This document shows, one piece after another, positions 1,417 through 40,570 of a stretch of 64,000 nt of DNA. The stretch is from an uncultured Rikenellaceae bacterium (lineage in GTDB: Bacteria > Bacteroidota > Bacteroidia > Bacteroidales > VadinHA17), in the NCBI GenBank assembly GCA_964514725.1, contig CAZEUL010000005.1, positions 129,479-193,478 on the forward strand. The letters are read 5' to 3'. Below the pieces are notes generated by a model. The model was not told the DNA's origin. It ran no database searches and worked only from the letters and a program-made list of their open reading frames with translations. The stretch's first letter is position 1. Each line of letters begins with the position of its first letter. A program made the position numbers and the translations under genes.

Positions 1417-1439
1417 TTGTGCATATAATCAATTACACT

Positions 1440-4346: not shown

Positions 4347-4350
4347 AACC

Positions 4351-6318
4351 ATGAAGCTGACAACATTTGTATTTCTCATTCAGTTTAGCACCTGTAACCT
4401 TCTGTCACAGGTCTTTACCATTGGATCCGTCTATGATCTGGATCCGGTTTTTGAGGACGGATACAGGATGCCTGTAATGAACGATTCAGTAAATATCTTC
4501 GGGATAAGAGGAGAAATTGTCTCCGGGCAGTTCGTTGTCAGCGCAAAAAAACAACTTAATAATGTAACCGTACAACTGAGTGATTTTAACGAGATTACAT
4601 CGGGCGCAGCACTACCGGACGGTTCTGTAGAATGGAATTTCGTGGGTAGCATTCCTTTAACGAAAAATACTCCCAATCAGCCTGATAGAGAGCTTACCAG
4701 GAAGGCTCCTGCACGATATCCCGAGTACCTGATGGCTGAAAAAAGTGTGAATATGCCTCAAAAAACTTTCAGGGCGATCTGGCTTACTATATCCATACCT
4801 GAAAATTTAAGAGAAGGAACCTATGCAGGAAAAGCAACGGTAAAGTGCAGTCAGGGCGAACAGTCGATACCAGTTTGCATTAGGATATATCCGTTAACTC
4901 TTTCTTCCGAAAGGCATCTTAAGGTAACCGAATGGTACAACACAGGCGCTTTCAACCGCTTTCACGGAATAAACGAGAGGTATTCCGCAGAATGGTTTGC
5001 AATGCTTAGAAAATATGCGGAAAATATGGCTGCGCACAGACAGAATGTTTTTCAGGTCCCGATGAGTGCGGTGGAAATAAGCAGGAATAAAGACGGCAGA
5101 CTTGATTTTAATTTTACAAGATTTGACCAGATTGCTGAGGTTTTCTGGGATACAAAGAAGATGGATTATCTTGAGACCGGGGAAATTATGAGGTTTGGTG
5201 ATAATGCATGGTTCAGCACTTCTATTAAAGTTCAGGATTTCAAAGTAAAAAATGAAATAACCGGAACGGTTGAGACAATTCCGGGAGATGATGTTGCACC
5301 ATATCTGCTCCCTGAAATTGAAAATCATCTGAGAAAGAAAGGGTGGCTTGACAAAACCCTTTTTCATGTAAAAGATGAACCATCGATGCATAATGCTATG
5401 GCCTGGAGAGAAAAATCATCGTATATACACAGGCTGGCTCCTGACCTTAAAAGGCTCGACGCAATAGAAACTACAAACCTTCTGAATGATATAGAAATAG
5501 CAGTTCCCAAACTCGATGCACTCGGAACCTGGCACAGCTCTTTTGAAGAAGCACGAAGGAGGGGTGTGGAGTTATGGTTTTACACTGTCGGAATTTATCA
5601 GGGCAGCCTCTTCCCCAATAAGACAATTGACCTGCCTGTAATGAACAGCCGCATACTGCACTGGCTCAACTACAAATATGATGCAACAGGTTATCTTCAC
5701 TGGGGCTGGAACCAATGGGAAGAAGATCCGTTTAAAGATGTGGGAATGCATATTGGTGATGGATGGCATGTCTACCCTGCCAGGGATGGAGTCCTCAATT
5801 CACTGAGATGGGAACAGATGAGGAACGGGATACAGGATTATGAATGCTTCCTGATGCTTGAGAAAAAGATAAAGGCTCTCAGGGATTCGCTTGGAGCCAG
5901 GGCCTCGTGGATTATCCCTTCGCAGAGAGGCAAAGAGATCGCTTCAGAGATCGTTATGAGCTTTGATGAACATTCCGATGATCCGCGCTCACTATACAAA
6001 GCAAAGGAAAAACTTTTAAATGAACTGGTAAGTTTTAACAAACCTCCTGAAATATATATTCAGACTACACCGGCAGAGGGCGCCACAATAACATACCACT
6101 CTTCAGTTGAGCTATATGGATGGACTGTTCCTGGGACAAAAATTATTGCCAACGGGAAAGAACTTCCTGTAAGTGCTCAGGGATACTTCTTCGAACAATT
6201 CGGAGGAGAGGCACTTGATAATACAAAAATAGGCCTCTCTGACGGTTCAGTATATGTACAGGCTGTGAAAGACGGGAAAACGACTGAAATTGTAAGAAGA
6301 TTTATTATTAAACGATAA
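4351..6318 (+). CDS. DUF4091 (GH123-like) glycoside hydrolase
   Basis: The likely start is ATG 4351 (MKLTTFVFL), 4 nt after the upstream stop. Motifs present are ILHWLNYKYDATGYLHWGWNQW, GDGWHVYPA and RWEQMRNGIQDYECFLML. Confidence 0.7.
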   Translation: MKLTTFVFLIQFSTCNLLSQVFTIGSVYDLDPVFEDGYRMPVMNDSVNIFGIRGEIVSGQFVVSAKKQLNNVTVQLSDFNEITSGAALPDGSVEWNFVGSIPLTKNTPNQPDRELTRKAPARYPEYLMAEKSVNMPQKTFRAIWLTISIPENLREGTYAGKATVKCSQGEQSIPVCIRIYPLTLSSERHLKVTEWYNTGAFNRFHGINERYSAEWFAMLRKYAENMAAHRQNVFQVPMSAVEISRNKDGRLDFNFTRFDQIAEVFWDTKKMDYLETGEIMRFGDNAWFSTSIKVQDFKVKNEITGTVETIPGDDVAPYLLPEIENHLRKKGWLDKTLFHVKDEPSMHNAMAWREKSSYIHRLAPDLKRLDAIETTNLLNDIEIAVPKLDALGTWHSSFEEARRRGVELWFYTVGIYQGSLFPNKTIDLPVMNSRILHWLNYKYDATGYLHWGWNQWEEDPFKDVGMHIGDGWHVYPARDGVLNSLRWEQMRNGIQDYECFLMLEKKIKALRDSLGARASWIIPSQRGKEIASEIVMSFDEHSDDPRSLYKAKEKLLNELVSFNKPPEIYIQTTPAEGATITYHSSVELYGWTVPGTKIIANGKELPVSAQGYFFEQFGGEALDNTKIGLSDGSVYVQAVKDGKTTEIVRRFIIKR

Positions 6319-6455: not shown

Positions 6456-7925
6456 ATGACATATATTAAGCCAGACAGGAGAAAATTCATTATCCAAAGT
6501 ATTCTTGGAACGGCAGGTGCCGCATTAGGAGGATTTATACCCGGAAAAATCAATCCATTACCTCTTGATGGCGAAAAGGAAAATAATAAGTTTAAGTCAG
6601 GAGTTAAGGTAACGGTCCAGGCTGAAGAAGAGGTCTATAAGTATACACCGGCCGAAAATGGTGCAGGACCAATGTGGTGCCACGGCTCGACCTGCATTGT
6701 CCGTCACGGAGATAAAGTTTATGCATCGGGAATTGAAACAGTCCCGGTCTGGAAACCACTTAACAATTGTCGGTGGATGCTTTTCAGACGTTCAGAAAAA
6801 GGATGGGAACATGTAATGACAGATGAGAAAAACCGAACCCGCGAACCAAGTCCGCTCGCTGTTTTAAGTAATGGGCAGATTTACCTGTCGGCTAATCCGA
6901 CACTGACAGGTCCTGAAGAATACAATGGTCCTTCAAAACCAGAGTTCTTTGTTTTTGATTCCAATGATCCGAATTTAAGTTACAAGCAGGTCTTTCCCGA
7001 ATGGGCCGGAAATCCTCCATTCACAGAACATTCCTACAGAAGCCTGGCAGCAGATGGGCCGTCAAATGAACTTATTATTTTTCAAAATATTGGTTATACT
7101 CATGCTGAATGGTCGTTTCTGGATAAGCAAAACCGGTGGGCAGCACAGGGACGACTTGTCTGGCCATGGGGTTCTGAATACGAAGTACCCGAACCAATAA
7201 GGATATGCTATCCCAATGTAATGCTTAAAAATAAAGCTATCTATTTCTGCGGAGTAAGCGATATAATCGAACCCAAAAAAGCATGGAGGGAATTTAAACG
7301 ACAGTTGACAGGCAATGAATGGGATTATGACTTCAGGAGGCTGTTCTTTACTTGGACAGAAGACATAACCAAAAACGCTTTTCACGACTGGATTGAGATA
7401 GCCAGTCGTGAAGAGACCTGCGGATGGATTTACCCTGCCGATTTGTATGCGGAAGATGACGGGTCGGTCCATATCCTCTGGACAGAAAGGGCTATCGATG
7501 AAAGATTGCGTGAAAAATTCTTTCCTGGCGCAAAGCAATCTCATGCCCTGAATTATGCTTTGGTAAAAAACGGGAAAGTTATTGCCAGAAATATCCTTCA
7601 TCTTAATGAAGAGGGAGGAACAAACGGAATACCATCTGAAGCACGATTTCAGATACTGCCTGACCATAGGATATTTGTTGTTTACGCAGTAAGGGAAAAT
7701 GTTACTGCAGGTCAGACAACAGTTAAAAACTATGCCAGAGAAATCGATACCGGATCAAAAAACAGAAAACCGGTACTCATCCCGCTCAGATATCCCTTTT
7801 CAGGTTTCTTTACAGCTACAGTCCGGGCAGGGTCAGAACCTTCTTCCTTCCTGGATATTCTTGGCACAACCGGTGAAAAGAATACAATACGTTATGCAAA
7901 AGTGAATCTGGACTTTGCTATTTAA
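6456..7925 (+). CDS. Tat-signal periplasmic protein of unknown function
   Basis: 489-aa ORF with a twin-arginine motif (PDRRKFIIQSILGTAGAALGG). I recognise no catalytic motif. It sits directly upstream of a Tat-signal Gfo/Idh/MocA gene. Confidence 0.55.
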   Translation: MTYIKPDRRKFIIQSILGTAGAALGGFIPGKINPLPLDGEKENNKFKSGVKVTVQAEEEVYKYTPAENGAGPMWCHGSTCIVRHGDKVYASGIETVPVWKPLNNCRWMLFRRSEKGWEHVMTDEKNRTREPSPLAVLSNGQIYLSANPTLTGPEEYNGPSKPEFFVFDSNDPNLSYKQVFPEWAGNPPFTEHSYRSLAADGPSNELIIFQNIGYTHAEWSFLDKQNRWAAQGRLVWPWGSEYEVPEPIRICYPNVMLKNKAIYFCGVSDIIEPKKAWREFKRQLTGNEWDYDFRRLFFTWTEDITKNAFHDWIEIASREETCGWIYPADLYAEDDGSVHILWTERAIDERLREKFFPGAKQSHALNYALVKNGKVIARNILHLNEEGGTNGIPSEARFQILPDHRIFVVYAVRENVTAGQTTVKNYAREIDTGSKNRKPVLIPLRYPFSGFFTATVRAGSEPSSFLDILGTTGEKNTIRYAKVNLDFAI

Positions 7926-9500: not shown

Positions 9501-10958
9501 ATGAATACGAAAACTCGACCAACACTTTCACGCTTTGTTCTGTTGCCTTTGTATTCAATATGTGTTTTTGCCTCTTTACTTTTTTTAATATCCTGCTCAG
9601 CAGATAGAAAATCAAAAGCACTCTCAACTTTACAAATAGGGATTGCTGAGCTTAACTACACTCCCGAAACAGGACTTGATCTGGTTGGAAATTACCGCGG
9701 TGATGATTATGCCTCTAGAGGGGTGCACGACTCACTGTATGCAAAAGCCCTGGTTGCTTCTGACAGCAAAGGTCAGAAAGTAGCAATACTTGCAATCGAT
9801 ATATGCCTTCTTCCGAAGGAACCGGTGAAATATATCCGTGATTATATTGCATCAAAAAGCGATATAAAGTCGGAGAACATTATGGTAATGGCCACTCACA
9901 CACATAGCGGTCCGCCATCCGATCTTGATGCTCCTAAGGCAAAGGAATATCTTCTTAAAGCGGCAAATGCTGTTCTGGAGGCTGACAGGAATCTGAAACC
10001 GACAGTGGTATCGGCAGGAAGAAGCTCCGAAAACAGAATATCGCATAACCGGCGGCTCAGATGCATCGATGGTACAACACATATGTGCTGGGAGAAGTTA
10101 GAACCGGGATACGTAATAGAACCATGGGGTTCGATTGATCCTGAGGTTATTACACTGACTTTTAAGCAGGACGGAAAAGAATCGGGTGTCCTTGTTAATT
10201 TCGGTTGCCATGCTACAACCCTTACAGGTAATAACTGGCTCTATTCCGCAGATTATCCGGGATATCTCGCTGAAGCAATAAAGAAAGTAAAAGGTAAAGA
10301 TTTCAAATCGATGTTTTGTAATGGTTGCTGCGGAAATGTTACCCAGGTCGATTACAGGGTTGGGTTTCCCGATACCTTTCAGGAATGCCAGCGTATCGGG
10401 TATATACTGGCAATTGCTGCACTGGAATCAATGAAAAACTCAAATGTTGTGCCGACAGATAAGATTGTTGTATCGCGTGAAATGGTGCCACTGAATAGAA
10501 TTGATATATCTGATGAACAGATAGCCTGGGCTAAAGAGATCATGAAAAAGGTTGAAAAAGAGGGAATGCCTCCTATTCAGGCAGATGGCATGCCAGATGC
10601 ATATTATGCAAAGGAATGGCTTGAAATGAGAAAGGTTCAGGACATAACAGACAGTGTTGAGGTTATGGTGATCAGGTTAGGTGATGTTGCGTTCGTCGGT
10701 TTGCCGGGTGAGATATTTAATGAGTTTGGAATTGATATAAAATCAAAATCACCCTGCAAGAACACAATTGTAACAAGTCTGACAAATGACAACAGAGCTT
10801 ATTTCCCTACTAGAATTTCTTTCACTCAGGGACCTGTAGGATTTACACCAATGATAACTGGTTATGAGACAACCCCGGGAACAACTCTTTATGAACCCGG
10901 ATCGGGGGAAAAACTCGCAGAGTCAGCAATAAGGCAGCTGAATAAGCTTTTTGAATAA
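9501..10958 (+). CDS. Neutral/alkaline ceramidase-like lipoprotein (putative amidase)
   Basis: It has a lipoprotein signal (LLFLISCS). The N-terminal pattern LQIGIAELNYTPETGLDLVGNYRGDDYASRGVHDSLYAKALVASD...VAILAIDICLL resembles the ceramidase N-terminal domain. Confidence 0.5.
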   Translation: MNTKTRPTLSRFVLLPLYSICVFASLLFLISCSADRKSKALSTLQIGIAELNYTPETGLDLVGNYRGDDYASRGVHDSLYAKALVASDSKGQKVAILAIDICLLPKEPVKYIRDYIASKSDIKSENIMVMATHTHSGPPSDLDAPKAKEYLLKAANAVLEADRNLKPTVVSAGRSSENRISHNRRLRCIDGTTHMCWEKLEPGYVIEPWGSIDPEVITLTFKQDGKESGVLVNFGCHATTLTGNNWLYSADYPGYLAEAIKKVKGKDFKSMFCNGCCGNVTQVDYRVGFPDTFQECQRIGYILAIAALESMKNSNVVPTDKIVVSREMVPLNRIDISDEQIAWAKEIMKKVEKEGMPPIQADGMPDAYYAKEWLEMRKVQDITDSVEVMVIRLGDVAFVGLPGEIFNEFGIDIKSKSPCKNTIVTSLTNDNRAYFPTRISFTQGPVGFTPMITGYETTPGTTLYEPGSGEKLAESAIRQLNKLFE

Positions 10959-28770: not shown

Positions 28771-30708
28771 TTATTTTTTATTGTTCTGCAATTTCTTTTC
28801 AATAAGATTCCCCATCATGATTCTCTGAAAATCCCATTTTTGAGCATCAAAGCTCCATACATCAAGATTCCCGATGGATTTAGGACCAAATGGGGCCTTA
28901 ATGATTTGATTGACAATAGAATCGGCCCGCATAGTATTGCCATCAGCCTCTGATAACAGCCTCATGTACTCATATTCCTGTACTCCATCACGCATGGCTT
29001 TCAGCCGGATAGAGGGACATGCACCATTTACATTGGGTACAACACCAGGAGCATAAATCAAAAGAGCATTGCCATTGATTTTTTTATACGTGAATTCAGC
29101 CTCAGATTCTGGTCTTGCCTTAGATGCGTCTTTCCATGTTTCCGGATCATACCATCCGCTTATCCAGCCTGCTCCGGCTCCCCAGCTTAACCATGAACGG
29201 GTCCTGTATTTCCAGCTGCTCCAGCTTATTGCACGGTCATTGACAAGCGGAAGATCCAGAAATGTAGAACTTCCTACCCAGCTGTTCACCTTGCTCTCGT
29301 AAAGCATCGGCCCGTACAGCCATACTTTAATGCCCATATCCTGATATTTCTTAACCGTTTCATAGTCATATTCAATGGTATGGGAAGCCCAGGAGTTAAT
29401 TGAATTCTTCACAACCTGAAGCGCTTCTTCGGTGTAGCCGCCATCAATCCGAAAATTTGCCTCAGGATATAATTCACGGAACATATCGCCATAATATACC
29501 ATACGGCTCCATGCCTCAGGGAAATATGATTCATCAAGCCCATTCAGATAAACAGTGATATCAGTTTTGGAGGTATCAATAAGTGATTTGAAATGCTCAC
29601 GAACCTGTTTAATACATTCAGTATATATTGTTCTGTTTGCAGGTTCTCTTTCAACATCAGGCTTACCGATATCAGGCCAGCCTTTAGTTCCGTGTTTTCC
29701 ATATACATCAAACGGCAGAACGAATGTTTCAATAGGTTCTCCATACCCCGGACCAAAATGATATCCGAATTCTTTTGTAAATGCCTTGCCTGTGAAATAT
29801 TTATTTAAACGATCATCAAAGGCCTTCCAGTCAATAATAACCTTTCCTGTCTCGCTTATTTTAAGCCCGGGCTCGTATGTCGGATCCAGCATGGTCACCC
29901 TGTTTCTTTTTAATAACTGATATATCTCCAGTTCCTGCTTCTCAGGCATGCTTTTCATAAATCCTTCATGTTGAAGGCCCGCCTTTAACTTATTCTCATT
30001 AGGCAGCTCAAAATCCCATATTGTGAGATTTACGGGAATTTTGCGTGTGAATCCTTTAATTGTTATCTTTAATTCTGATGAATAAACACCCGGAGCCGCT
30101 TCCTGCCTGCTGAAAGGAATAAACTGATCAAACCAGATAATTATAGATTTCTGATTATCAATCCGGTTGTTGAAATCAGGAAGCCATAAAGGATATATCC
30201 ACCGCCATTTTACCTGTGATGAATCATCCTGAATGTAAGAAAAAGGGATAAGGGCATCCGGGTACCATCCATTGCCAAGTGAAGCTTTGGGATATCCCGT
30301 GCTTGGAGTTTTAACTTCAACTGCCCATTCAAGAAAAGGTTCAGGCTTTACCGGAACTTCAATTTCTCCTTTTCTGAATGGAGCCATCTCAACTCTGATA
30401 TTATCCAGTGTCTCTTTAATCAAAGTGGTTATTACCAGCTGAAATGAAAGATATTCTCCTCTTGCGGCATGCAGTGTTACCAGATTACCATCATAAATCA
30501 GATTTTTCTTTAGCAGATCCCTGCCTGTCTCCTTATCATCTTTTAAGAGAACAAACCGGTTATCAATGATTTCATTGTTTGTCGGATCAAGCCTTACCGA
30601 AGATGGGATTACCGTAACCGTCCAGTCTGATCCTCCTCCGTTTTTTTTAGGGGCCGAGCAGCTGTATAATGTGTAAATAATCAATGAAATAATAAACAGA
30701 TTTCTCAT
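28771..30708 (-). CDS. DUF4091 (GH123-like) glycoside hydrolase lipoprotein
   Basis: It has a lipobox (LYSCS). Motifs AISWSSWKYRTRSWLSWGAG, ALLIYAPG and RLKAMRDGVQEYEYMRLL match the other DUF4091-like ORFs in this window. Confidence 0.7.
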   Translation of the reverse strand: MRNLFIISLIIYTLYSCSAPKKNGGGSDWTVTVIPSSVRLDPTNNEIIDNRFVLLKDDKETGRDLLKKNLIYDGNLVTLHAARGEYLSFQLVITTLIKETLDNIRVEMAPFRKGEIEVPVKPEPFLEWAVEVKTPSTGYPKASLGNGWYPDALIPFSYIQDDSSQVKWRWIYPLWLPDFNNRIDNQKSIIIWFDQFIPFSRQEAAPGVYSSELKITIKGFTRKIPVNLTIWDFELPNENKLKAGLQHEGFMKSMPEKQELEIYQLLKRNRVTMLDPTYEPGLKISETGKVIIDWKAFDDRLNKYFTGKAFTKEFGYHFGPGYGEPIETFVLPFDVYGKHGTKGWPDIGKPDVEREPANRTIYTECIKQVREHFKSLIDTSKTDITVYLNGLDESYFPEAWSRMVYYGDMFRELYPEANFRIDGGYTEEALQVVKNSINSWASHTIEYDYETVKKYQDMGIKVWLYGPMLYESKVNSWVGSSTFLDLPLVNDRAISWSSWKYRTRSWLSWGAGAGWISGWYDPETWKDASKARPESEAEFTYKKINGNALLIYAPGVVPNVNGACPSIRLKAMRDGVQEYEYMRLLSEADGNTMRADSIVNQIIKAPFGPKSIGNLDVWSFDAQKWDFQRIMMGNLIEKKLQNNKK

Positions 30709-31005: not shown

Positions 31006-31800
31006 ATGAAAAATACAGTTTTGTTTATTTTAGTGCTAAATATAATTGCATGCACCAGGGATGAAAAGGTGATGTACGCAGATCTTACACCTGCTGAATT
31101 TAAAGAAAGAATTGAGAAATGTCCTGTAGCTTATCTTCCATTGGGGACCCTTGAATGGCATGGCGATCATCTGCCTCTTGGTTCAGACGGACTGCAGGCA
31201 GAAGGATTTTTTAAGAAACTGGCAGAAAATTTTGGAGGCATCGTTTTACCAAAGCTTTTTGTTGGCCCTGATGGATATGATACACTAATAGCAGGCAGGG
31301 AGTATTATGGAATGGATTGCGGAAAGGTTTTCAGTAATCAGTGTAATTATGAGATACAGCAGCTGCCCGGTAGTGCCTACTGGGTTTCTGATTCAACCTT
31401 CGATATTCTTATGAACGGCATAATGAAACAGCTAAGCCGTGCCGGATTCAGGATTGTTGTTGCACATGGTCATGGACCATCGACTCAATATATAGGATCT
31501 CATGCACAGGAATTTTTGAAGCGTTATAATCTTGTTGTCATGAATTGCTGGGGCGGCGACAAGGATGACCTTTGCCTGATGTGCGATCATGCAGGTGCTA
31601 ACGAAACCTCTTTGATGATGTTTCTTCATCCTGATCTTGTAAAGATGCAAAACCTGCCATCTGATCCTGATGTCTGGCCTCTTGGGATGCTTGGCAAGGA
31701 TCCGAGGACTGATGCCACCAGCTCCAAAGGAAGAAAAATAGTAGAGTTTGAAATTGAAAAAATGAAATCGATTCTTCAGAAAGAACTTGAAAAACTCTGA
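31006..31800 (+). CDS. Creatininase-family amidohydrolase, lipoprotein
   Basis: It has a lipobox (LNIIAC) and the creatininase-type metal motif YLPLGTLEWHGDHLPLGSDG. Confidence 0.7.
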   Translation: MKNTVLFILVLNIIACTRDEKVMYADLTPAEFKERIEKCPVAYLPLGTLEWHGDHLPLGSDGLQAEGFFKKLAENFGGIVLPKLFVGPDGYDTLIAGREYYGMDCGKVFSNQCNYEIQQLPGSAYWVSDSTFDILMNGIMKQLSRAGFRIVVAHGHGPSTQYIGSHAQEFLKRYNLVVMNCWGGDKDDLCLMCDHAGANETSLMMFLHPDLVKMQNLPSDPDVWPLGMLGKDPRTDATSSKGRKIVEFEIEKMKSILQKELEKL

Positions 31801-31952
31801 TAACTAAAAGTATGTTAATGAATTCTGATTATAGCTGGTATTCTTTACATCCGGGAATATTTATATTTAATATTCCGAATATTTTCATATTGATCAATCC
31901 GGAAAAATTCGCATAGATAATTGGAATTAAATAAACTTTTACCCCACCAGGC

Positions 31953-34900
31953 ATGCGTATCACAACCTTATTCTTATTTTCATTAACGATTTCTTTATAC
32001 GGCCAGAAGGCAATTATCCGGGAAGTTGTGAGACCAGTTACAACATACCCATACTCTGACCCCGATCCTGTGCCAAAACCGGGAAGAACCTATCCGTATT
32101 TCAGATTTGATGGATATACTAATAAATCAGCTCCGGTCAACTGGAAAATGATTGAGCTTGAAAATGATTATATACGCCTTGCTGTTATGCCAGAAATAGG
32201 CGGGAAAGTATGGGAAGCCTATGAGAAATCAGAGAATTATCCATTTGTTTTTACAACAAAGGCGGTCAAATTCCGTGATATTGCCCTTCGCGGCCCATGG
32301 ACCACGGGAGGACTTGAATTTAATTTCGGTGATATCGGGCACGCTACTACCTGTTCAACTCCGGTGGATTACTTCACCAGACAAAATTCCGACGGAAGTG
32401 TAAGCTGCTTTATTGGTGCTACTGAATGGGCATCAAGAACTACCTGGAGGGTTGAGATCAGGCTTGAAGCCGACAAAGCATATTTTACAACCCGCTCATG
32501 GTATTATAACGGTACACCTGTTGAGCAGGAGCTATATCATTGGATAAATGCAGGCTTTAAGGCGTCAGGAAACCTTGAGTTCATCTTTCCGGGCACACAC
32601 CATGTCGGACATGGAGGAGAATACGGTAACTGGCCTCTGGATACCGTTGGGAGGGATCTCTCATTTTATGAGAATAATAATTTTGGCAGCTATAAATCAT
32701 ATCATATATTTGGTCGTCCATCAGATTTTTATGGGGGTTTCTGGCATGACGACAACATGGGATTTGGCCGCTTTTCACCCTATTATGAAAAGCTAGGTAA
32801 AAAAATATGGATTCTGGGACTTTCACAGGAAGGGACAAGATGGGAAAATCTTCTTGGCGATAACGACGGACTTAATGTAGAGCTACAGTCAGGCCGGTTG
32901 TTTACCCAGGCTTCGGAGTCAAGCATGTTTACTCCATTCAAACATGTAGGTTTTTCACCATTTGCAACTGACTCATGGTCAGATATGTGGTTCCCCGTGA
33001 AGCATACCCGTGGGATGACACAAGCCTGCTCCAAAGGGGCCCTTAACCTAAGGTCTGAAGACGGATGGCTTAAAATCGACTGGATGTCGCTTGGAAACCA
33101 GCATGATTCCCTTATAATACTTGACGGCCGGAAACCATTAATCTCAAGGTATTTAGACCTAAATCCATTAGGTTTGTTCCGCGATTCGTTGATATGGAAC
33201 GGCAATCCTGATATATTGAAGGTAAAAATAGGCAACTACCTGATTTCCGACGGTTCGGTCCAGTCAATAAACCGTCCGTTGCAAAGTCCTTCCAGCTTCA
33301 GATGGGATTCTGAATATGGTTTGTTACTGAGGGGTTCTGACCTGAGCAAACAAAAGAACTACAAGGAAGCTGAATCCTTCTTTCTTGAAGCATTGGATAA
33401 GAATCCATATTTTGTCCCAGCTCTCATCCAGATGTCAGAGATACGATTCAGACAGGGATTATATAATGAATCCCGCGAGTATGCAAAAAAAGCTCTTTCA
33501 ATTAATACTTATGATCCATGGGCAAATTATTTCTGGGGGCTTGCAAGCGACAAAGCAGGTTATTATGCAGATGCTGTTGATGGTTTTTCAGTTGCAACAA
33601 TTGATCCTTATGCCAGACCGGCCGCTTTATTGAACCTGACCCGTCTGTCAATAAGACAAAAGAATCTGATCAGAGCGAAAAGCCTTGTTGATAAATGTAT
33701 TGGTTCGAATCCTGAAAATGAAGATCCATTGATCCTTAAAGCCCTGATAACAAGACTTTCAGGAGAAAAGGATCTCTCTTTGAAATATCTGAGTGAGATT
33801 CTTGAAAGCAATCCCCTGTGCCATCAGGCCAGGTTTGAGAAATATCTGAATACTGAAAACATAGCTGACAAGAATGACTTCGTAAACATGATCAGGCAGG
33901 AAATGCCACATGAGACCTTCATTGAACTGGCTTTAAATTACTATAATCTTGGGCTGACCGGAGAGGCTTTAGAGTTACTTGGTATGGCACCCCGCAATCC
34001 AATGGTGGAGCTCTGGCAAGCTTTTCTTCTGAACAGGACCGGTAAAAAAGAAGATGCTGAAAGGTTACTTGATTCTGCTTCTTCAGCATCTCCTGAACTT
34101 GTTTTTCCATTCCGGACCGAAATGATCCCTCTTTTTTCATGGGCAAACAGTATAATACCTTCATGGAAATGGAGGTACTATGAAGCGCTTATACACTGGC
34201 AGAACCATTTAAATGATAGAGCAGGTAACTTGTTCATGGCATGCGGTGATGAACCTGATTTTGTGCCATTTTACATTGCAAAAGCCAGATTCTTCAGTGA
34301 CAACCCTGCAGTTGTAAAGGCTTCTCTTGAAAAAGCCGTGGAGATGGACCCTTTATTCTGGAGGACATCAATTGATCTTGCTAAATTCTATGCAGAATCA
34401 GGCGATACCAAAGGAGCTCTTAAAATTGCAGGTAAAAATTACAAAAATCACCCTGGAAGTTTCGTGATAGGACTTCAATATGCGCAGATGCAGACTCTCA
34501 ATCAGATGTATATTGAAGCCCTTGCTACTCTTAAAGGTCTGGAAATGCTCCCGGCCGAAGGTGATGTGAATGCACACACATTGTTCAGACAAACAAATAT
34601 TCTTCTTGCACTTGATCTTATTAAGGGAAAAAAATATCACAAAGCTGTTCATTATCTGCAAGAGGCTGAAAAATGGCCTGAAAATCTTTTTTCCGGGGAA
34701 CCCTATCTGGCTGATAACCGGGTAACACGCTTTATTACATCATATTGTATGGAGAAGCTAAACAGAAAGAAAGATGCAGAAGCTGGAATAAATTATATAA
34801 AGAATTACCGAAATCCTGATGGCAGAACCTTCAGGTCAGGTGATATACTGACTAAGTTACTACTCACTGGTAACCAGGAATTTAAGAATACCTTGAAGCT

Positions 34901-34967
34901 GGTCCTTGAAAACCTTGGTAGTGACAGGGATAAAGAAGTGCTTGTTAAGTTTCTGGAGTTGTTATAA
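31953..34967 (+). CDS. DUF5107-like N-terminal domain fused to a long TPR-repeat region
   Basis: 1004-aa ORF with a signal peptide. The N-terminal ~450 aa (YPYSDPDPVP...YPYFRFDGY) resemble DUF5107, and the C-terminal half is helical-repeat (TPR-like) sequence. Confidence 0.55.
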   Translation: MRITTLFLFSLTISLYGQKAIIREVVRPVTTYPYSDPDPVPKPGRTYPYFRFDGYTNKSAPVNWKMIELENDYIRLAVMPEIGGKVWEAYEKSENYPFVFTTKAVKFRDIALRGPWTTGGLEFNFGDIGHATTCSTPVDYFTRQNSDGSVSCFIGATEWASRTTWRVEIRLEADKAYFTTRSWYYNGTPVEQELYHWINAGFKASGNLEFIFPGTHHVGHGGEYGNWPLDTVGRDLSFYENNNFGSYKSYHIFGRPSDFYGGFWHDDNMGFGRFSPYYEKLGKKIWILGLSQEGTRWENLLGDNDGLNVELQSGRLFTQASESSMFTPFKHVGFSPFATDSWSDMWFPVKHTRGMTQACSKGALNLRSEDGWLKIDWMSLGNQHDSLIILDGRKPLISRYLDLNPLGLFRDSLIWNGNPDILKVKIGNYLISDGSVQSINRPLQSPSSFRWDSEYGLLLRGSDLSKQKNYKEAESFFLEALDKNPYFVPALIQMSEIRFRQGLYNESREYAKKALSINTYDPWANYFWGLASDKAGYYADAVDGFSVATIDPYARPAALLNLTRLSIRQKNLIRAKSLVDKCIGSNPENEDPLILKALITRLSGEKDLSLKYLSEILESNPLCHQARFEKYLNTENIADKNDFVNMIRQEMPHETFIELALNYYNLGLTGEALELLGMAPRNPMVELWQAFLLNRTGKKEDAERLLDSASSASPELVFPFRTEMIPLFSWANSIIPSWKWRYYEALIHWQNHLNDRAGNLFMACGDEPDFVPFYIAKARFFSDNPAVVKASLEKAVEMDPLFWRTSIDLAKFYAESGDTKGALKIAGKNYKNHPGSFVIGLQYAQMQTLNQMYIEALATLKGLEMLPAEGDVNAHTLFRQTNILLALDLIKGKKYHKAVHYLQEAEKWPENLFSGEPYLADNRVTRFITSYCMEKLNRKKDAEAGINYIKNYRNPDGRTFRSGDILTKLLLTGNQEFKNTLKLVLENLGSDRDKEVLVKFLELL

Positions 34968-35045
34968 AATTGGATGGAAAAATTATTTTGGCACCAATTC
35001 ATCCCGACTGCTATCAGGATGGCGACAATATGATGTTTACTTGTT

Positions 35046-36191
35046 TTAAGCTACTCCAAACCTTTCAAGTTTGTAAAACCTGAATGCATTATCCCAATAG
35101 ATTTTCTTCAATACTTCATCATCGAGTCCGATACCGTCTATTTTCCATTTTCCCTGGATAGGAGTAGGATGATCAAATTGTTTATCATTGGTCTGGAAAT
35201 AGCGCCAGTGGATATCATAAAAATGATGGTTTTCTTCCATTGTGAAATCCTTACAGGGGCCTGCCCCCTGAACTTCACACTCCTCCCATAATGCCATATC
35301 TGTTCCGAACATTATTCTGTCCTGATACTTTGTAAAAAAGTCATGGCCTTCCTGTGGATCATGTTTCCCAAGTTCCCCGATGCGAGCTGCAGTATCGATG
35401 TTAAGGTTAGGGAGCTGATCGAGCCAGGTGCTCACCATTTTAAGATTTTCCGAATAACCGGCTACATGAACTGCAACGAATTTTACATTTGGGAAAGTTC
35501 TGTAGACATTATTGACCTGTTCAAAAAGAGTTTCCAGAGCAGGGTATTTAGTGCGGTCTGCAAAAGACCATTCAGGATGGAGTTCGAGTTCCTCCCAGCG
35601 CTCATTCTGAGGATTCCATGGTTGAAAGAAAGCTACCGGATCTCCTGTGTGGAAAGCTACCGGTATACCAAGTTTCTCGGCCCTTTCCCATATAGGGTAC
35701 AGCCTCGGATCGTCGATGGCGATAAGCTTTCCATCCATATCCCTGGCAGTAAGTCCAAGGTCTTTAAGATTCTTGAGTGCAATGGCCCCTGCATCGACAG
35801 CTTTTTCAAGTATGTCTGGGGCTTTTATGAAAAATTCAGGATCGGTCTTAGCCAGATCCCAATCAAAGGTATAATGAAGGCCAAATCTGTTTCTGTATGG
35901 CTTTATGGCATTATTGATTTCATAAAATGCCCGGTCACCGACATACATATCTGAGTCGGAACCGGAAATTGAAGCTATCAGCACTGCGTATCTGATTAAA
36001 TTATCATCCAATATCCTGAGAGCTTTTTCAATTTTTCCGGGTGTCGCGTGCATGTGGGCATCGATCAGACGGCCCCCGGCCGGTTTTAACTTATCTGGTT
36101 TGCTTGCACTATTGCATTGATTCAATCCTGCTGCCGAAATTACTGCTGCACCCATAGATGAAAGTTTTATAAATTCTCTTCTGCTTATCAT
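35046..36191 (-). CDS. Amidohydrolase-family metallohydrolase with Tat signal
   Basis: It has a Tat motif (ISRREFIKLSSMGAAVISAAG), the HxH motif (LIDAHMHA) and a C-terminal FGTDM motif. Confidence 0.7.
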   Translation of the reverse strand: MISRREFIKLSSMGAAVISAAGLNQCNSASKPDKLKPAGGRLIDAHMHATPGKIEKALRILDDNLIRYAVLIASISGSDSDMYVGDRAFYEINNAIKPYRNRFGLHYTFDWDLAKTDPEFFIKAPDILEKAVDAGAIALKNLKDLGLTARDMDGKLIAIDDPRLYPIWERAEKLGIPVAFHTGDPVAFFQPWNPQNERWEELELHPEWSFADRTKYPALETLFEQVNNVYRTFPNVKFVAVHVAGYSENLKMVSTWLDQLPNLNIDTAARIGELGKHDPQEGHDFFTKYQDRIMFGTDMALWEECEVQGAGPCKDFTMEENHHFYDIHWRYFQTNDKQFDHPTPIQGKWKIDGIGLDDEVLKKIYWDNAFRFYKLERFGVA

Positions 36192-36203
36192 TTTATTCCG
36201 GAT

Positions 36204-37559
36204 TTATTTTGTCAAATCACCAAAAACATCTGACCGGCGATCCTTGCGCCATACAGTTTTCCACACCCCCAGCCCTGCGTTTCCTAGCCAGTACCATCGG
36301 GGGTTGTAATTCAGATCTACATCCGCCACCAGCAAACTGCCCTGGGTGGAGCTTTCCTGAAGCACTTCACCTGCAGGATTTACTATTACACTGTGACCGT
36401 CGAAAATGTTTGTCACAAAGTAGACTCCGTTGTCAACAGCCCTGGCTCTGGCGATGAGTTTCCACATATCAGGATCCCTGACATCTCCCCAGACCGGGCA
36501 GAATAAGATTTCAGCTCCGTTTATTGCAAGAATCCGGGAAATTTCAGGGAAAGCGCTGTCCCAACAGATCAGAATGCCAATTTTCCCAAAATCTGTAGTG
36601 AAAACAGGAAATTCATTTCCAGGTATTGCCCCGGCTTCGGTCTCCGAATCAGGTAGCTGCACCTTTTCATAAATTCCCTCTATATTCCCCTTACGACCGT
36701 AAAGCACAGCCACATTTTTCAATGTATCATCCTTCCAGCTGTAAAGACCCGAAACTATGTACATTCCATATTCCTTAGCCTTGCGTGACATCATAACAGA
36801 TGCACTACCCTCAAGCGTGTTGGCTTCTGTTTTCTGCATCCCTAGTCCGGTATTGCAGGTAGGCCAGCCCTCCGGGAGGCATACTATTGTACAGCCTGCT
36901 TTACCCGCCTTGTCAAGCATTTCACTCATTAAAGATACGTTCTTTTCAACTGTCGGACCCGGCGGGCGAAAATAAAAGGTCCCGACTTTTATTTTTCTGG
37001 GCTGCTCGGGTTCACACGATTCGAAAACAATGTCATCCCACCACACTGTACCAGTACTCCATCTGAACACCAGATTGATCTCAGCGGCTGTAGTCCCCGC
37101 TACAGATCTGATCTTGTCCGAGGCAAGTATCCAACCTCCATCCTCGTTCCTTTCGGTATAAATATAATTGTAACCAAGTTGTTCATCTTCCCTAAACCAT
37201 TTTACCCTTATCAAGACACTTTTATGAACCGATTTAATTCCACTCGTACGGTACCTGACACTTACCTGATAGGCCTGATCTCCTTTTACTGAAATTTTCT
37301 GGGCAGCTATCCCGTGGCAGTTGGGATTATTGCTTTCCATCCTCAAACCAGAATTCCCGCTGAAAAAAACCTTTTTGTCTAATGCAGTCAGAGGCTTCAT
37401 GGAAGGAACCGGACCGCTGATTTTCCAGTTTACTGCATCGGTTGAAGAGGCCTCAAATCCAGGATTTATTACCAGATTATCTGCAAATGAAATTCCTGAA
37501 AAGAGAATAAAGCTGACAATTGAAACCACCGCAGGCAGTATATTAGATTTTTCTTTCAT
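36204..37559 (-). CDS. Secreted carbon-nitrogen hydrolase (nitrilase superfamily) with an N-terminal CBM4/9-like jelly-roll domain
   Basis: It has a signal peptide and an N-terminal NLVINPGFEASS...WKISG CBM-like module. The E-K-C triad context is present (VCLPEGWP, YEKVQLP, ILICWDSAFPE). Confidence 0.75.
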   Translation of the reverse strand: MKEKSNILPAVVSIVSFILFSGISFADNLVINPGFEASSTDAVNWKISGPVPSMKPLTALDKKVFFSGNSGLRMESNNPNCHGIAAQKISVKGDQAYQVSVRYRTSGIKSVHKSVLIRVKWFREDEQLGYNYIYTERNEDGGWILASDKIRSVAGTTAAEINLVFRWSTGTVWWDDIVFESCEPEQPRKIKVGTFYFRPPGPTVEKNVSLMSEMLDKAGKAGCTIVCLPEGWPTCNTGLGMQKTEANTLEGSASVMMSRKAKEYGMYIVSGLYSWKDDTLKNVAVLYGRKGNIEGIYEKVQLPDSETEAGAIPGNEFPVFTTDFGKIGILICWDSAFPEISRILAINGAEILFCPVWGDVRDPDMWKLIARARAVDNGVYFVTNIFDGHSVIVNPAGEVLQESSTQGSLLVADVDLNYNPRWYWLGNAGLGVWKTVWRKDRRSDVFGDLTK

Positions 37560-37595
37560 GTGTTTAGACTGTTTATTTGTTAAACCTGGTTCCTT

Positions 37596-38525
37596 TTAGC
37601 CTTTGAACCATTTATAGGTACATCCCTGGTTGAAATGAATTACTTCAATCGAAGGATACCTGTCTTTTATTATCCTGTTCAGCGATCTTATCCCCATCTC
37701 TTCACTTACGCCATGATTAATGACAATAAGAGGATGTCCGGTATCCTCCGCGTAAACAGTCTGGATATGGGTCCGGATAACGTCATCTATAGCCACAAAT
37801 ACATCGGGTTTCAAATCAGCAAAATCCATCGGGTCACAGATCCAGCCGGTTCCCAGGCCCACACTCGAAACCATTCTTTGAGGATCACCGTAGAATGCAA
37901 CTCCGGGCTGCCCCAACTGCGACAGCTTGCCGGCAATCATTCCGGCAAAGCTTGAAGCAGTCATTTTATTAAATCTATAAACATTATAATAAGTACGAGA
38001 GGAAATTATATCATTTTTACCAAACCCGAGGAATTCTCCGAATGCAAAAGGAATACCTTTTTCCTGCAGCGCATCAATTGTGTCGTGGTTTCTTATTATC
38101 ACAAGCTGGTTTTCATTAATCCACTTTTTCTTCTTTTCGATCTGTAACAGGTATTGTTGCTTGGTGTAATCAGATGATCTATCAAGAAAGCTGGGAACCT
38201 CATCAAGATCCCAATGTGTATAAAATGTCGGCTCATGAGTAACAAGGACATTTACCCCTGAAGTAACGGCCTTTTTACATGTTTCCCATGTCGACATCCA
38301 GCACGTTCCTATCTTTTTAATTTTTACATCAGGATTGCCGATTATTATCCTGTCAACTGTCTTCTTAGGAAGATTTGTAAGCGAGACAAGATAATTCTGA
38401 AGCTCCTTAACGGTCAGGTCATCAGACATTTTGCCTTTTAACGGGTACCCTTCCGGTGAAAACCCGGAAATTCCAAAGTAACTGCCGGAAAGTGCTGTAA
38501 CTCTTATAAAATCTTTTCTATTCAT
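37596..38525 (-). CDS. NIF3-like (dinuclear metal centre) family protein with a Tat-like signal
   Basis: The pattern IKKIGTCWMSTWETCKKAVTSGVNVLVTHEPTFY follows the NIF3 N-terminal layout. The N-terminus MNRKDFIRVTALSG is Tat-like, with RK in place of RR. Confidence 0.5.
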   Translation of the reverse strand: MNRKDFIRVTALSGSYFGISGFSPEGYPLKGKMSDDLTVKELQNYLVSLTNLPKKTVDRIIIGNPDVKIKKIGTCWMSTWETCKKAVTSGVNVLVTHEPTFYTHWDLDEVPSFLDRSSDYTKQQYLLQIEKKKKWINENQLVIIRNHDTIDALQEKGIPFAFGEFLGFGKNDIISSRTYYNVYRFNKMTASSFAGMIAGKLSQLGQPGVAFYGDPQRMVSSVGLGTGWICDPMDFADLKPDVFVAIDDVIRTHIQTVYAEDTGHPLIVINHGVSEEMGIRSLNRIIKDRYPSIEVIHFNQGCTYKWFKG

Positions 38526-38742
38526 ACTGCTGAAAGAATTGTAATGTTGTGCCCTAAGTTATAAAATGAAATGATCATTTCGGAGATCATTATAAAAATT
38601 GTGGAACACCTGTAAATTAAGGAAATCTGAAAAAATGCGACTTAAGAAGTTTTACCAGATTTAAAAGCTTATTATAGAATATTTTTAATAAAGATTTTAC
38701 CTTTATTGGAGCTATGATGGGTTTTTTCCAAACAGTTATTTA

Positions 38743-39714
38743 ATGAAAAACGAAAAACATTTTTTGGAAGGAAGGGGTAAAACTTCTTCAAGAAGAAGAT
38801 TCCTTTCAATGGGAGCTGGAATTTTGACCGGAGCTTTTATCCGAAATATACCTTTAACAGAGAGTCAATATAGACCTGGGCATATTTCAAGGGATCCATT
38901 ATCCTGGCCGGATACCGGCCTTATTTTTGACTGCCACCTTCATTGTCCCTCAGAAAAAGGTGAAAGTTGGCAATGGTACAAGGTTACAAACACCTTTGAA
39001 GACTTTCTTAAATACCTTGACAAGACAGGTGTGCATAGAGGAATAATTAATTCACAGAGAAGCTATGGTGAGAGGCCGGAAGAATTCATAGCCGGTAATC
39101 GTGAAATCGCAAGATTTGTCGAAAAATACAAGGGGCGCTTTATAGGGGCATGTGTTGTCAATCCACTTTACATTGAAGAAGCACTTCGTGAGATTGAGTT
39201 TTGCCACAGGGAACTTGGTTTTATCTGGGTAGGTGAGTTATGCAATTACATGGTCCCATATGATTATTCAATAAAAGAATTCGAAACACTTGTAAATTAT
39301 GTTTCCGGCCGTGGAATGATTCTATCATTGCATACGGAACATGGTGAGATGGAATATATTGCTCAGAAATTTCCAAAAGCCACAATTGCTTTTGCTCATT
39401 TTGGAGATGATCATGAATATGAAGACATTTTTAAGAGAATTGACATTGTGGCTGCAAATCCGAATTATTATCTCGACACTTCCGGTTATGGTCACGATCG
39501 TGTTGGAGTACTTGAATATGCCGTGAAAAAAATTGGTCCCGACAGGATCCTGTTTGGCTCTGATTTTTCCATAAATGATCCATCGACCGTGATTGCAAGG
39601 ATTAAAAACTCTTTTCTGTCAGAGGAGGAAAAACAAAAAATACTTTCAGGGAATCTCTTAAAACTACTTGAGAAATCAGGAATTGAAGCCGGAGAAAATT
39701 TTTTGCCTGAATAA
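38743..39714 (+). CDS. Amidohydrolase-family metallohydrolase with Tat signal
   Basis: It has a Tat motif (SSRRRFLSMGAGILTGAF), the HxH motif (IFDCHLHCP) and a C-terminal LFGSDF motif. Confidence 0.7.
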   Translation: MKNEKHFLEGRGKTSSRRRFLSMGAGILTGAFIRNIPLTESQYRPGHISRDPLSWPDTGLIFDCHLHCPSEKGESWQWYKVTNTFEDFLKYLDKTGVHRGIINSQRSYGERPEEFIAGNREIARFVEKYKGRFIGACVVNPLYIEEALREIEFCHRELGFIWVGELCNYMVPYDYSIKEFETLVNYVSGRGMILSLHTEHGEMEYIAQKFPKATIAFAHFGDDHEYEDIFKRIDIVAANPNYYLDTSGYGHDRVGVLEYAVKKIGPDRILFGSDFSINDPSTVIARIKNSFLSEEEKQKILSGNLLKLLEKSGIEAGENFLPE

Positions 39715-39715
39715 A

Positions 39716-40570
39716 TTAATCTAAGCCTGGTTCCACATGTATAATTACATTCAGCTTCTCAAACTTTGATGAAAGTATCTCTTCAATGTGGTCACAATAA
39801 CTATGAGCGTTTTCAACTGACTGATCCTTCGGGATTTCAATATGAAGATCAATAAATCTGTAATTTCCTGATATTCTTGTTCTTAAGCCGTGGTAATTTA
39901 CTTCCATTTCATCAAGCATTTTTTCAAGCTTTTCAACCTCATCGTCCGACCAGGCTTCATCAAGCAAAGGTCTGAATGCTTTCCTGCTCAAAACCCATGC
40001 TTCTTTTATGATCAGACCAGCGACACAAATTGCAACCAAGGGATCAAGCCAGTAGATATCTGTCAGAATAATGAGACCAAGCCCGGCTGCCACGCCAAGT
40101 GAAGTATATACATCAGTCTTGAGGTGCAGTGCGTCTGCTTCAAGAGCAACTGAACCTGTCTGCTTTGCAACCTTGTAAAGTTGACGTGAAACAAAAGTGT
40201 TGACAACTGCAGAAACGACCATAACCAGAGAGCCAAGTCCCAGGGATTCAATAATTGTTTGTCCGCCAGTTATCTTTTTTATTGCCTCAATTATTATCCA
40301 TATAGCGGCAACAAATATCAGAAGAGCTTCAATGACTCCTGATATGTTTTCAACCTTTCCGTGACCGTATGGGTGACGTGTGTCGGGTGGATTATCGGAT
40401 ACTTTCACCGAAACGAAAGCAATTACTGATGCTATTAAATCCATTGATGAATGTATAGCCTCCGAAATAATACTTACCGATCCGCTGATAAGACCAACGG
40501 CCAGCTTAATAGCAATCAGAAAACTATTAGAAATTACTGATATCCTGGCAATTCGTATTTTGGGATTCAT
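39716..40570 (-). CDS. Cation diffusion facilitator (CDF) family metal efflux transporter
   Basis: It has six hydrophobic helices, the CDF HxxxD motifs (HSSMDLIAS, HLKTDVYTS) and a C-terminal cytoplasmic domain. Confidence 0.85.
   Translation of the reverse strand: MNPKIRIARISVISNSFLIAIKLAVGLISGSVSIISEAIHSSMDLIASVIAFVSVKVSDNPPDTRHPYGHGKVENISGVIEALLIFVAAIWIIIEAIKKITGGQTIIESLGLGSLVMVVSAVVNTFVSRQLYKVAKQTGSVALEADALHLKTDVYTSLGVAAGLGLIILTDIYWLDPLVAICVAGLIIKEAWVLSRKAFRPLLDEAWSDDEVEKLEKMLDEMEVNYHGLRTRISGNYRFIDLHIEIPKDQSVENAHSYCDHIEEILSSKFEKLNVIIHVEPGLD

Follow-up and report, generated by a model that had tools for sequence, protein, structure and literature searches.

A recurring set of genes for predicted exported enzymes, with a possible role in the processing of modified sugars, in an uncultured Bacteroidales lineage

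Do six adjacent genes that all encode signal-bearing proteins serve a common purpose outside the cytoplasm and, if so, on what kind of substrate? The question is raised by a 64,000-nucleotide stretch of contig CAZEUL010000005.1 (assembly GCA_964514725.1, positions 129,479 to 193,478 of the forward strand; hereafter the window) from an uncultured Rikenellaceae bacterium, in which a creatininase-like lipoprotein, a DUF5107 protein with TPR repeats, two PF04909 proteins, a nitrilase-fold protein and a NIF3-like protein are encoded side by side. The original prediction read these genes as an exported amide/C-N bond hydrolase cluster. Our analysis showed that most of the set recurs, with changing flanks, in related genomes, and that its families recur beside sugar genes. 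We give about an even chance to the reading that it is a lineage-specific, co-inherited periplasmic accessory island for modified sugars, modular in construction and not one linear pathway. The finding is a well-documented candidate, not a demonstrated pathway. The genes and the intervals that bear on their layout are as follows, with lengths in amino acids (aa).

31006–31800, plus strand: creatininase-family lipoprotein, 264 aa (Pfam PF02633, 105 bits)
31953–34967, plus strand: DUF5107 (YphG-type) protein with about 600 aa of TPR, 1004 aa (PF17128, 354 bits)
35046–36191, minus strand: first amidohydrolase, a PF04909 TIM barrel, 381 aa (Pfam, 86 bits)
36192–36203, minus strand: 12-bp gap between the nitrilase-fold and first amidohydrolase genes (intergenic length)
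36204–37559, minus strand: beta-sandwich plus nitrilase-superfamily protein, 451 aa (PF00795, 130 bits)
37560–37595, minus strand: 36-bp gap between the NIF3-like and nitrilase-fold genes (intergenic length)
37596–38525, minus strand: divergent NIF3/DUF34-like protein, 309 aa (DUF34_NIF3, Pfam)
38526–38742, no strand: 217-bp intergenic region with AT-rich palindromes, from which the NIF3-like operon and the second amidohydrolase gene diverge (gene layout)
38743–39714, plus strand: second amidohydrolase, a PF04909 TIM barrel, 323 aa (Pfam, 82 bits)
39716–40570, minus strand: CDF cation-efflux transporter (Pfam Cation_efflux and ZT_dimer)

The six open reading frames (ORFs) were found at the predicted coordinates with the predicted Pfam domains, and every product exceeded the Pfam gathering score. 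None of the six reached an NCBIfam equivalog cut-off, so a named enzyme is not assignable to any of them. Gene layout and gap lengths divide the six genes into three transcription units. In the first, the creatininase-like gene is followed by the DUF5107 gene after a gap of 152 bp. The second, on the minus strand, runs from the NIF3-like gene through the nitrilase-fold gene to the first amidohydrolase gene (we use "first" and "second" for the PF04909 proteins at 35046–36191 and 38743–39714, respectively); these three genes, separated by 36 and 12 bp, clearly form one operon. The third consists of the second amidohydrolase gene alone, which is divergent from the NIF3-like gene and convergent with the CDF gene.

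Export signals were judged by eye, with a crude motif script and from conservation in orthologues. The creatininase-like protein begins with the leader MKNTVLFILVLNIIAC, whose lipobox Cys16 does not vary among four orthologues; classical Sec-type leaders are present on the DUF5107 and nitrilase-fold proteins. The leader of the first amidohydrolase contains SRREFIK, with a conserved Cys past the hydrophobic region; RREFI is present in four of five orthologues, the fifth being a truncated gene call. That of the second contains SRRRFLS; four orthologues and two paralogues all keep R17, R18 and F20. With a twin-arginine motif, a mildly hydrophobic region and the twin-arginine translocation (Tat) machinery represented in the source genome by TatC (232 bits), both amidohydrolases read as Tat substrates. 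The NIF3-like protein carries M-x-RKDF, invariant in five orthologues, and was not called by the crude script; because its motif is RK and not RR, the leader is best termed only Tat-like. The predicted run of six adjacent signal-bearing genes thus finds support in leaders conserved among orthologues and in the presence of TatC, and export of all six proteins is plausible.

Judged by such leaders, exported copies of cytoplasmic-type families appear to be a general habit of the source organism. Since exported paralogues are abundant genome-wide, six signal-bearing genes in a row are not unusual in this genome. The crude script returned approximately 150–200 ORFs with an RR or RK motif and a hydrophobic stretch in the 4.2-Mb genome, and the predicted Tat set includes about 30 Gfo/Idh/MocA paralogues of 417–514 aa. 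Nor are the families involved, described beforehand as normally cytoplasmic, strictly so elsewhere: within the nitrilase superfamily, the domain of Lnt faces the periplasm and the vanins and biotinidase are secreted.

We defined the core set as the creatininase-like, DUF5107, first amidohydrolase, nitrilase-fold and NIF3-like genes. It was present in the same relative order at six loci, namely the window (G000, the source genome), G008, L017 (GCA_964268325.1), L020, L030 and L031, the other five labels in this list denoting genomes or loci of relatives. The outer flanks change between these loci and include CorA, an esterase, MFS/DUF6786, BcGHD/DUF1961 and a fucosidase; a core set kept at six loci with varying flanks is the pattern of a conserved gene cluster. 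The slot beyond the NIF3-like gene is variable. It holds the second amidohydrolase in the window, EamA and the second amidohydrolase in L017, L020 and L030 (with a histidine kinase too in L020 and L030), and a Tat-GFO gene, a nitrilase-GH20 fusion and an aminotransferase in G008 and L031. Except in the G008 stretch examined, each cluster ends with a CDF gene; partial loci included, a CDF gene adjoins or closes it in G000, G006, L017, L018, L020, L030 and L031. In L020 (11395–14709), genes for a Gluconate_2-dh3 subunit, a GMC oxidoreductase and a multihaem cytochrome c, which make up a periplasmic flavoprotein dehydrogenase set, stand between the nitrilase-fold and first amidohydrolase genes.

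Two further loci are partial. L018 is without the NIF3-like and second amidohydrolase genes, its DUF5107 gene call is only 201 aa long, and its neighbours are URO-D, B12-binding methyltransferase-like and PhyH genes. G006 has retained the nitrilase-fold, NIF3-like, EamA, second amidohydrolase and CDF genes, and a first amidohydrolase pseudogene (G006:C8:550–1308, L013; 57% identity, two in-frame TAG stops) lies 3.7 kb away. This stop-bearing remnant beside the surviving cluster is evidence that the island is decaying in the G006 species. Of the 25 species of the genus, just two have the complete set, and a third shows it in decay. Among the 24 other species, nitrilase-fold orthologues were found in five, NIF3-like orthologues in two, a creatininase-like orthologue in one, and the first amidohydrolase once intact and once as a pseudogene. 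Within the genus, orthologues of the NIF3-like, first amidohydrolase and creatininase-like genes occur only in genomes that also carry the nitrilase-fold gene, and in 16 other sampled families of the order no orthologue of any of these four was detected. The set is restricted to one uncultured Bacteroidales lineage. A joint function had implied a conserved gene neighbourhood; this is seen at six loci with varied flanks, but modules also occur alone and the loci come from one lineage.

Paralogues of the six proteins, identified by BLAST against all ORFs of the assembly and subsequent inspection of the hits, extend this picture: these families recur beside sugar and amino-sugar catabolic genes. 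Three of the four DUF5107 genes of the source genome, in the window, on contig C21 and on contig C5, have a first-amidohydrolase homologue (27–41% identity) no more than 5 kb away. The C21 locus (C21:11359–22568, L024) is a minus-strand operon that encodes a Tat-GFO protein, a Tat-signal enolase-superfamily protein (MR_MLE_C), a DUF5107-TPR protein and a signal-less PF04909 protein, together with a 460-aa protein without Pfam match, a class II aldolase and an FGGY kinase. On contig C5, some 19 kb upstream of the window (C5:101953–110730, L022), a further gene for an exported DUF5107-TPR protein is divergent from an operon that comprises SIS (AgaS-like), GatZ/KbaZ, PfkB and class II aldolase genes and a lipoprotein PF04909 gene. 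Contig C3 carries NagB-like, NagA-like and SSF transporter genes with a Tat-signal PF04909 gene and a second PF04909 gene, and contig C1 brings together a Tat-signal CN_hydrolase gene and three PF04909 genes, of which one encodes a lipoprotein and another a Tat-signal protein. A module on contig C2 (C2:40166–48977, L026) comprises Tat-GFO, URO-D, a nitrilase-GH20 fusion of 1080 aa, EamA, a DeoR regulator and a class I/II aminotransferase. The fusion proteins (1060–1080 aa) join CN_hydrolase to GH20b/GH20 (beta-hexosaminidase-like) and are encoded also at L014:12974–19300 and L031:91–6417; together with Tat-GFO and the aminotransferase, this module directly adjoins the focal cluster in G008 and L031.

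Two of these loci are of interest in themselves. The C21 operon resembles a complete sugar route divided between periplasm and cytoplasm, in which the exported enolase-superfamily enzyme is unusual, and the C5 locus has the look of a tagatose-6-phosphate or galactosamine-type catabolic arm tied to the DUF5107 and PF04909 families.

Does recurrence of this kind signify a shared function? The best-surviving alternative is that it does not, and that unrelated exported enzymes have gathered in a variable chromosomal region and recur through recent common ancestry. The three transcription units, with their convergent and divergent layout and lack of a regulator, are what this explanation would lead one to expect, and it also gains from the presence of the complete set in so few species of the genus, from a genome full of exported paralogues of such families and from a pairing that is not conserved outside the lineage. 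It sits poorly, however, with a set that is kept in L017, L020, L030, G008/L031 and G000 as the flanks differ, with the placing of DUF5107 near a first-amidohydrolase homologue at three separate loci of one genome, with the Tat-signal nitrilase-fold gene beside PF04909 genes on contig C1, and with correlated loss, of which the pseudogene in G006 marks the decay. We regard the absence of any common function as unlikely.

If the proteins do share a task, its chemistry has to be sought in the individual families. In the nitrilase-fold protein, the CN_hydrolase match (against a cut-off of 23 bits) is confined to residues 203–418 of 451, and the Glu-Lys-Cys triad of E230, K299 and C332 is invariant in 29 homologues. 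An AlphaFold model (mean pLDDT 77) places a beta-sandwich at residues 30–185, followed by the nitrilase fold, and the top Foldseek matches are Nit2 (2W1V), N-carbamoylputrescine amidase and the PH0642 amidase (E of about 1e-19). Triad and alpha-beta-beta-alpha fold together identify it as a member of the nitrilase superfamily (PF00795). The equivalog scores all fall below cut-off, at 78 against 410 (AguB), 76 against 355, 73 against 500 and 47 against 133, the named equivalogs compared being AguB, deaminated-glutathione amidase, nitrilase and Lnt.

The N-terminal domain had been described as resembling a carbohydrate-binding module (CBM). The beta-sandwich itself is borne out by the model; the CBM identity is weaker, as the match to CBM_4_9_1 (E=0.0085, 16.8 bits) falls under the cut-off of 27. 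PF02018 is precomputed on one homologue, and a CBM4/9-like identity is plausible but unproven. In a whole-protein Foldseek search the catalytic domain dominates, and the N-terminal fold family is not assignable by that route. Clustered at 50%, the matches at E<1e-30 comprise 263 representatives, and of the 150 listed the majority cover both domains at 30–46% identity. The beta-sandwich plus nitrilase architecture forms an uncharacterised family of its own, and not a rare one.

The creatininase-like protein matches PF02633 over profile positions 1–233 of 238, and its lEwH, sD, GHG and HagxnEtS motifs align with the creatininase of Pseudomonas putida (3A6E). With a full-length profile match and with the binuclear metal ligands and catalytic His aligned, it belongs to the creatininase family. 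It does not qualify as a creatinine amidohydrolase proper (TIGR04448, 70.4 bits against 235), and scores against other equivalogs were likewise low (MftE, 46 against 172; IolN, 36 against 245). Since all lie far under the equivalog cut-offs, the substrate is not assignable.

Both PF04909 proteins lie well above the Amidohydro_2 cut-off of 26.4, and the HxH motif that had been predicted for the two is present and invariant. The invariant positions are H46 and H48 (HxH), H181, H242 and D298 in the first, and H65 and H67 (HxH), H197, H219 and D274 in the second. A profile built from the second amidohydrolase, its orthologues and two paralogues matched, among solved structures, gamma-resorcylate decarboxylase (3S4T, 2e-18), followed by LigW (5-carboxyvanillate decarboxylase), ACMSD and LigJ (4-oxalomesaconate hydratase). 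For the first, PDB sequence and profile searches returned no solved relative at E<1e-3. No amidase therefore stands among the solved relatives of either protein, those of the second being decarboxylases and hydratases and the first having none. Characterised PF04909 members are decarboxylases, lactonases and hydratases, and include LigI and the L-fucono and L-rhamnono lactonases. Because we know of no characterised member that is an amidase, the family name "amidohydrolase" is misleading for both proteins.

The DUF5107 protein was modelled with AlphaFold over residues 18–420 (pTM 0.74), and its best Foldseek match was 5CD6 (BDI_1685; E=5e-13), followed by galactose mutarotases and then by mutarotase-like (supersandwich) domains of glycoside hydrolase (GH) and polysaccharide lyase enzymes. 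PF17128 followed by TPR, together with a mutarotase-like fold, places the protein in the DUF5107/YphG family, which a Pfam control search also matched in Escherichia coli. On the strength of the model, it is probably an exported YphG-type protein with a galactose-mutarotase fold. A signal peptide is found on all four DUF5107 copies of the source genome, and DUF5107 occurs in 9 of 151 sampled Bacteroidota genomes. The closest orthologues in cultured organisms, DUF5107-TPR proteins of Runella slithyformis and Larkinella soli (61–67% identity), are encoded in SusC/SusD loci. Alongside them in these loci (L027:1082–12961 and L028:5259–16421) is a 1100-aa FG-GAP/UnbV_ASPIC protein, and the Larkinella gene also adjoins GH109, galactokinase and Asparaginase_2 genes.

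The NIF3-like protein scores 48–51 bits against DUF34_NIF3 (50.7 against a cut-off of 23.4) and 37.6 against 130.55 for TIGR00486. It is the third, divergent paralogue in a genome that carries a canonical NIF3 elsewhere (265 bits). Its closest solved relative is 9G9U (E=8e-16), with 260 residues aligned, including the T-H-E-P metal-site motif. In this alignment the first metal-site motif reads HE in both proteins; in E. coli YbgI it reads HH. The protein is, by these similarities and its leader, a divergent and putatively exported paralogue of a metal-binding family. Neither NIF3 nor DUF5107 is a hydrolase family. According to a review of the DUF34 family, its bacterial members are mostly cytoplasmic and are proposed to act as metal chaperones or insertases; a signal-bearing bacterial subfamily is not mentioned there (PMC8469502).

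Taken as a whole, then, the label "amide/C-N bond hydrolase cluster" is unsupported, because only two of the six proteins, the nitrilase-fold and creatininase-like ones, belong to families that truly cut C-N bonds. In structural comparison, the nitrilase domain resembled amidases and the DUF5107 domain resembled mutarotases. The proposed link to amino-sugar or glycan chemistry fared better. It is real for sugars, and probably for amino sugars, in view of the mutarotase fold, the beta-sandwich, the GH20 fusion and the AgaS/GatZ/PfkB and NagA/NagB operons.

The island reading assembles these parts into three modules, and the catalytic roles within them are ones that we infer. The first module would comprise the creatininase-like lipoprotein and the exported YphG-type DUF5107-TPR protein, the second the operon of NIF3-like protein, beta-sandwich nitrilase-fold amidase and first PF04909 hydrolase, and the third the CDF exporter together with the second PF04909 protein, joined in relatives by an EamA transporter. 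Together they may serve the periplasmic finishing, before uptake, of non-standard sugar units that lie beyond ordinary glycosidases; candidate units are amino-, amide-bearing or oxidised (lactone or acid) sugars from complex glycans. The mutarotase-fold domain of the DUF5107 protein might bind or interconvert sugars, and its recurrent PF04909 partner might open a lactone or carry out another hydrolysis or decarboxylation of a sugar acid derivative. The Cys-Glu-Lys nitrilase-fold enzyme, held to glycan by its beta-sandwich, could remove amide, carbamoyl or N-acyl groups through a thioester intermediate, and the binuclear metal centre of the creatininase-like enzyme could open a cyclic amide or diketo ring. 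Metal for the island enzymes may come from the NIF3-like protein and the CDF exporter. An amide or N-acyl step on hexosamine-type sugars is plausible, given the nitrilase-fold enzyme and its GH20-fused paralogue.

Several observations weigh against this reading. The nitrilase-fold gene is found by itself in G015, G019, L019 and L021, frequently in the vicinity of Tat-GFO or GH28 genes; in L029 it is the first amidohydrolase gene that stands alone. The intact copies all stem from one lineage, with 62–91% identity in the cluster proteins, so that common descent by itself may explain some of the synteny. The six genes are spread over three transcription units without a regulator. A general pairing of DUF5107 with PF04909 in Bacteroidota was considered and rejected, as none of the eight other DUF5107-bearing genomes has PF04909 nearby. 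The first-amidohydrolase homologue on contig C21 is without a signal peptide, and a DUF5107-PF04909 pair therefore need not share a compartment. Finally, the mean pLDDT of the DUF5107 model is only 65, and the CBM assignment of the beta-sandwich scores below threshold.

Next in probability to the absence of a common function, and also unlikely in our judgement, is the pathway that the original prediction had outlined for polymers, one dedicated periplasmic route by which the six proteins jointly free amino-sugar polymers of N-acyl, carbamoyl, amidino or lactam decorations. The intact triad of the nitrilase-fold protein with its attached beta-sandwich, the intact metal ligands of the creatininase-like protein, the paralogous nitrilase-GH20 (hexosaminidase) fusion that adjoins the cluster in G008 and L031, the GH123-like and ceramidase-like genes in the window and the amino-sugar catabolic genes that adjoin paralogous modules can all be accommodated by it. 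It fails to account for the remaining proteins, as the relatives of the second PF04909 protein are decarboxylases or hydratases, the first has no solved relative, DUF5107 resembles mutarotases in fold and no hydrolase role is known for NIF3 (PMC8469502). Moreover, the modules separate freely, and the first-amidohydrolase homologue on C21 is predicted to be cytoplasmic, which speaks for a substrate that is small and soluble and not a polymer. The mutarotase-fold protein, the PF04909 partners and the recurrent periplasmic dehydrogenases (GFO and GMC) are no less compatible with sugar oxidation and with the chemistry of lactones or sugar acids.

More doubtful still is the periplasmic scavenging of non-sugar, nitrogen-rich or aromatic small molecules such as creatinine, ureides, amidated dicarboxylates or hydroxybenzoate-type acids, with the sugar genes as mere neighbours. 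The solved relatives lend themselves to it, with Nit2 omega-amidase and N-carbamoylputrescine amidase for the nitrilase-fold protein, creatininase as the closest for the creatininase-like enzyme, and the gamma-resorcylate, LigW and ACMSD decarboxylases for the second amidohydrolase, and so do the URO-D, B12-binding methyltransferase-like and PhyH neighbours in L018. Yet the mutarotase-fold partner and the beta-sandwich on the amidase point to sugars, the association with GFO/GH109-type, GH20, AgaS/GatZ and NagA/NagB genes is a repeated one, and the scores lie far under the equivalog cut-offs of the named small-molecule enzymes. The least probable reading joins a nitrilase-fold glycan amidase, founding a de-amidating or de-N-acylating "carbohydrate esterase-like" family that would strip periplasmic sugars of amide-type decorations such as uronamide, N-acyl or carbamoyl, to a periplasmic metal-insertion system of Tat-exported NIF3-like protein and CDF, and we think this combination improbable.

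We return to the accessory island for modified sugars and to its immediate surroundings. The predicted glycan-degradation setting holds for the left flank of the cluster, which is glycan-related (GH123-like, beta-helix and GH106-like genes), and fails for the right, where CDF, IspH/LytB, Cmk and ETF genes make a housekeeping neighbourhood. Among the window genes scanned (160–55884) there was neither a SusC/SusD (Plug/SusD) pair nor a regulator domain, and the region does not classify as a polysaccharide utilization locus (PUL). Three GH123-like (beta-N-acetylgalactosaminidase family) genes and a neutral-ceramidase-like lipoprotein gene lie within 30 kb (1419–6318, 9501–10958 and 28771–30708) and hint at GalNAc-rich glycoconjugates, possibly glycosphingolipids, as local substrates. 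The glycoside hydrolase region also encodes two exported proteins without Pfam match, at 6456–7925 (489 aa, DRRKFI Tat motif) and 160–1416 (418 aa, Sec leader).

Perfect AT-rich inverted repeats are present in two of the intergenic regions, between the creatininase-like and DUF5107 genes (31854–31876, GGAATATT-N7-AATATTCC) and between the NIF3-like and second amidohydrolase genes (38570–38591, AATGATC-N8-GATCATT). The two repeats have nothing in common except a TGATCA core. An operator of TGATCA type common to both regions was entertained and dropped, because that hexamer is common, at 0.42 per kb across the genome and with 18 copies in the window. Scans for sigma-70 promoters and terminators were uninformative in this organism.

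All of the families involved are known, and exported enzymes beside glycoside hydrolases are normal in Bacteroidota. What is unusual is the combination of families, the conserved Tat-like NIF3 paralogue, the pairing of an exported YphG-type protein with PF04909, and a sizeable beta-sandwich plus nitrilase family. Literature searches found no paper on such a set, in agreement with the initial view that no pathway of this composition had been characterised. They also returned nothing relevant to DUF5107, BDI_1685, Amidohydro_2 proteins with twin-arginine signals or glycan-linked nitrilases, and one paper on necromass concerned an unrelated Serratia gene.

Bacteroidota degrade complex glycans, and sugar decorations commonly stall such degradation. 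Should the island act on amide-bearing or oxidised sugars in the periplasm, three kinds of enzyme from outside CAZy would join the glycan toolkit, namely those built on the nitrilase fold, on the creatininase fold or on the ACMSD-type TIM barrel, and three large, functionally unassigned families (YphG/DUF5107, exported NIF3-like and beta-sandwich plus nitrilase-fold) would acquire testable handles. Were metal insertion by NIF3 and CDF true, it would give NIF3/DUF34 its first defined biochemical role.

Comparison with known systems places each component near, but apart from, a characterised relative. The C-terminal 250 aa of the nitrilase-fold protein share the alpha-beta-beta-alpha fold and Glu-Lys-Cys triad of Nit2, N-carbamoylputrescine amidase and PH0642, with sequence matches to E=1e-22; it is set apart from these by a Sec leader, by some 160 aa of additional N-terminal beta-sandwich and by an identity of 22–32% over the aligned structure. 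The creatininase-like protein resembles the creatinine amidohydrolase of P. putida (1J2T/3A6E) and the wider PF02633 family (MftE, IolN, ArfB) in its full-length match, metal ligands and catalytic His, and differs from the P. putida enzyme in being a lipoprotein and in scoring far lower than the creatininase equivalog. Both PF04909 proteins keep the HxH, His and Asp positions of ACMSD-related enzymes and, unlike them, carry Tat leaders. The NIF3-like protein is akin to the NIF3/DUF34 proteins E. coli YbgI, Staphylococcus aureus SA1388 and 9G9U, with a Pfam score above cut-off and a metal-site motif aligned to 9G9U, and is set apart by its conserved Tat-like RK leader and its failure to reach TIGR00486.

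The DUF5107-TPR protein shares with E. coli YphG and Parabacteroides distasonis BDI_1685 the order of DUF5107 then TPR, BDI_1685 (5CD6) being the best structural match, and its pairing with PF04909 genes distinguishes it from the family in the other Bacteroidota genomes sampled. As a whole, the set differs from Bacteroidota PULs in having neither SusC/SusD nor a regulator among the genes scanned and in being drawn from enzyme families outside CAZy. It resembles PULs, and their periplasmic Gfo/Idh/MocA (GH109-type) enzymes, in that its predicted exported products are encoded next to glycoside hydrolase genes and recur beside Tat-GFO.

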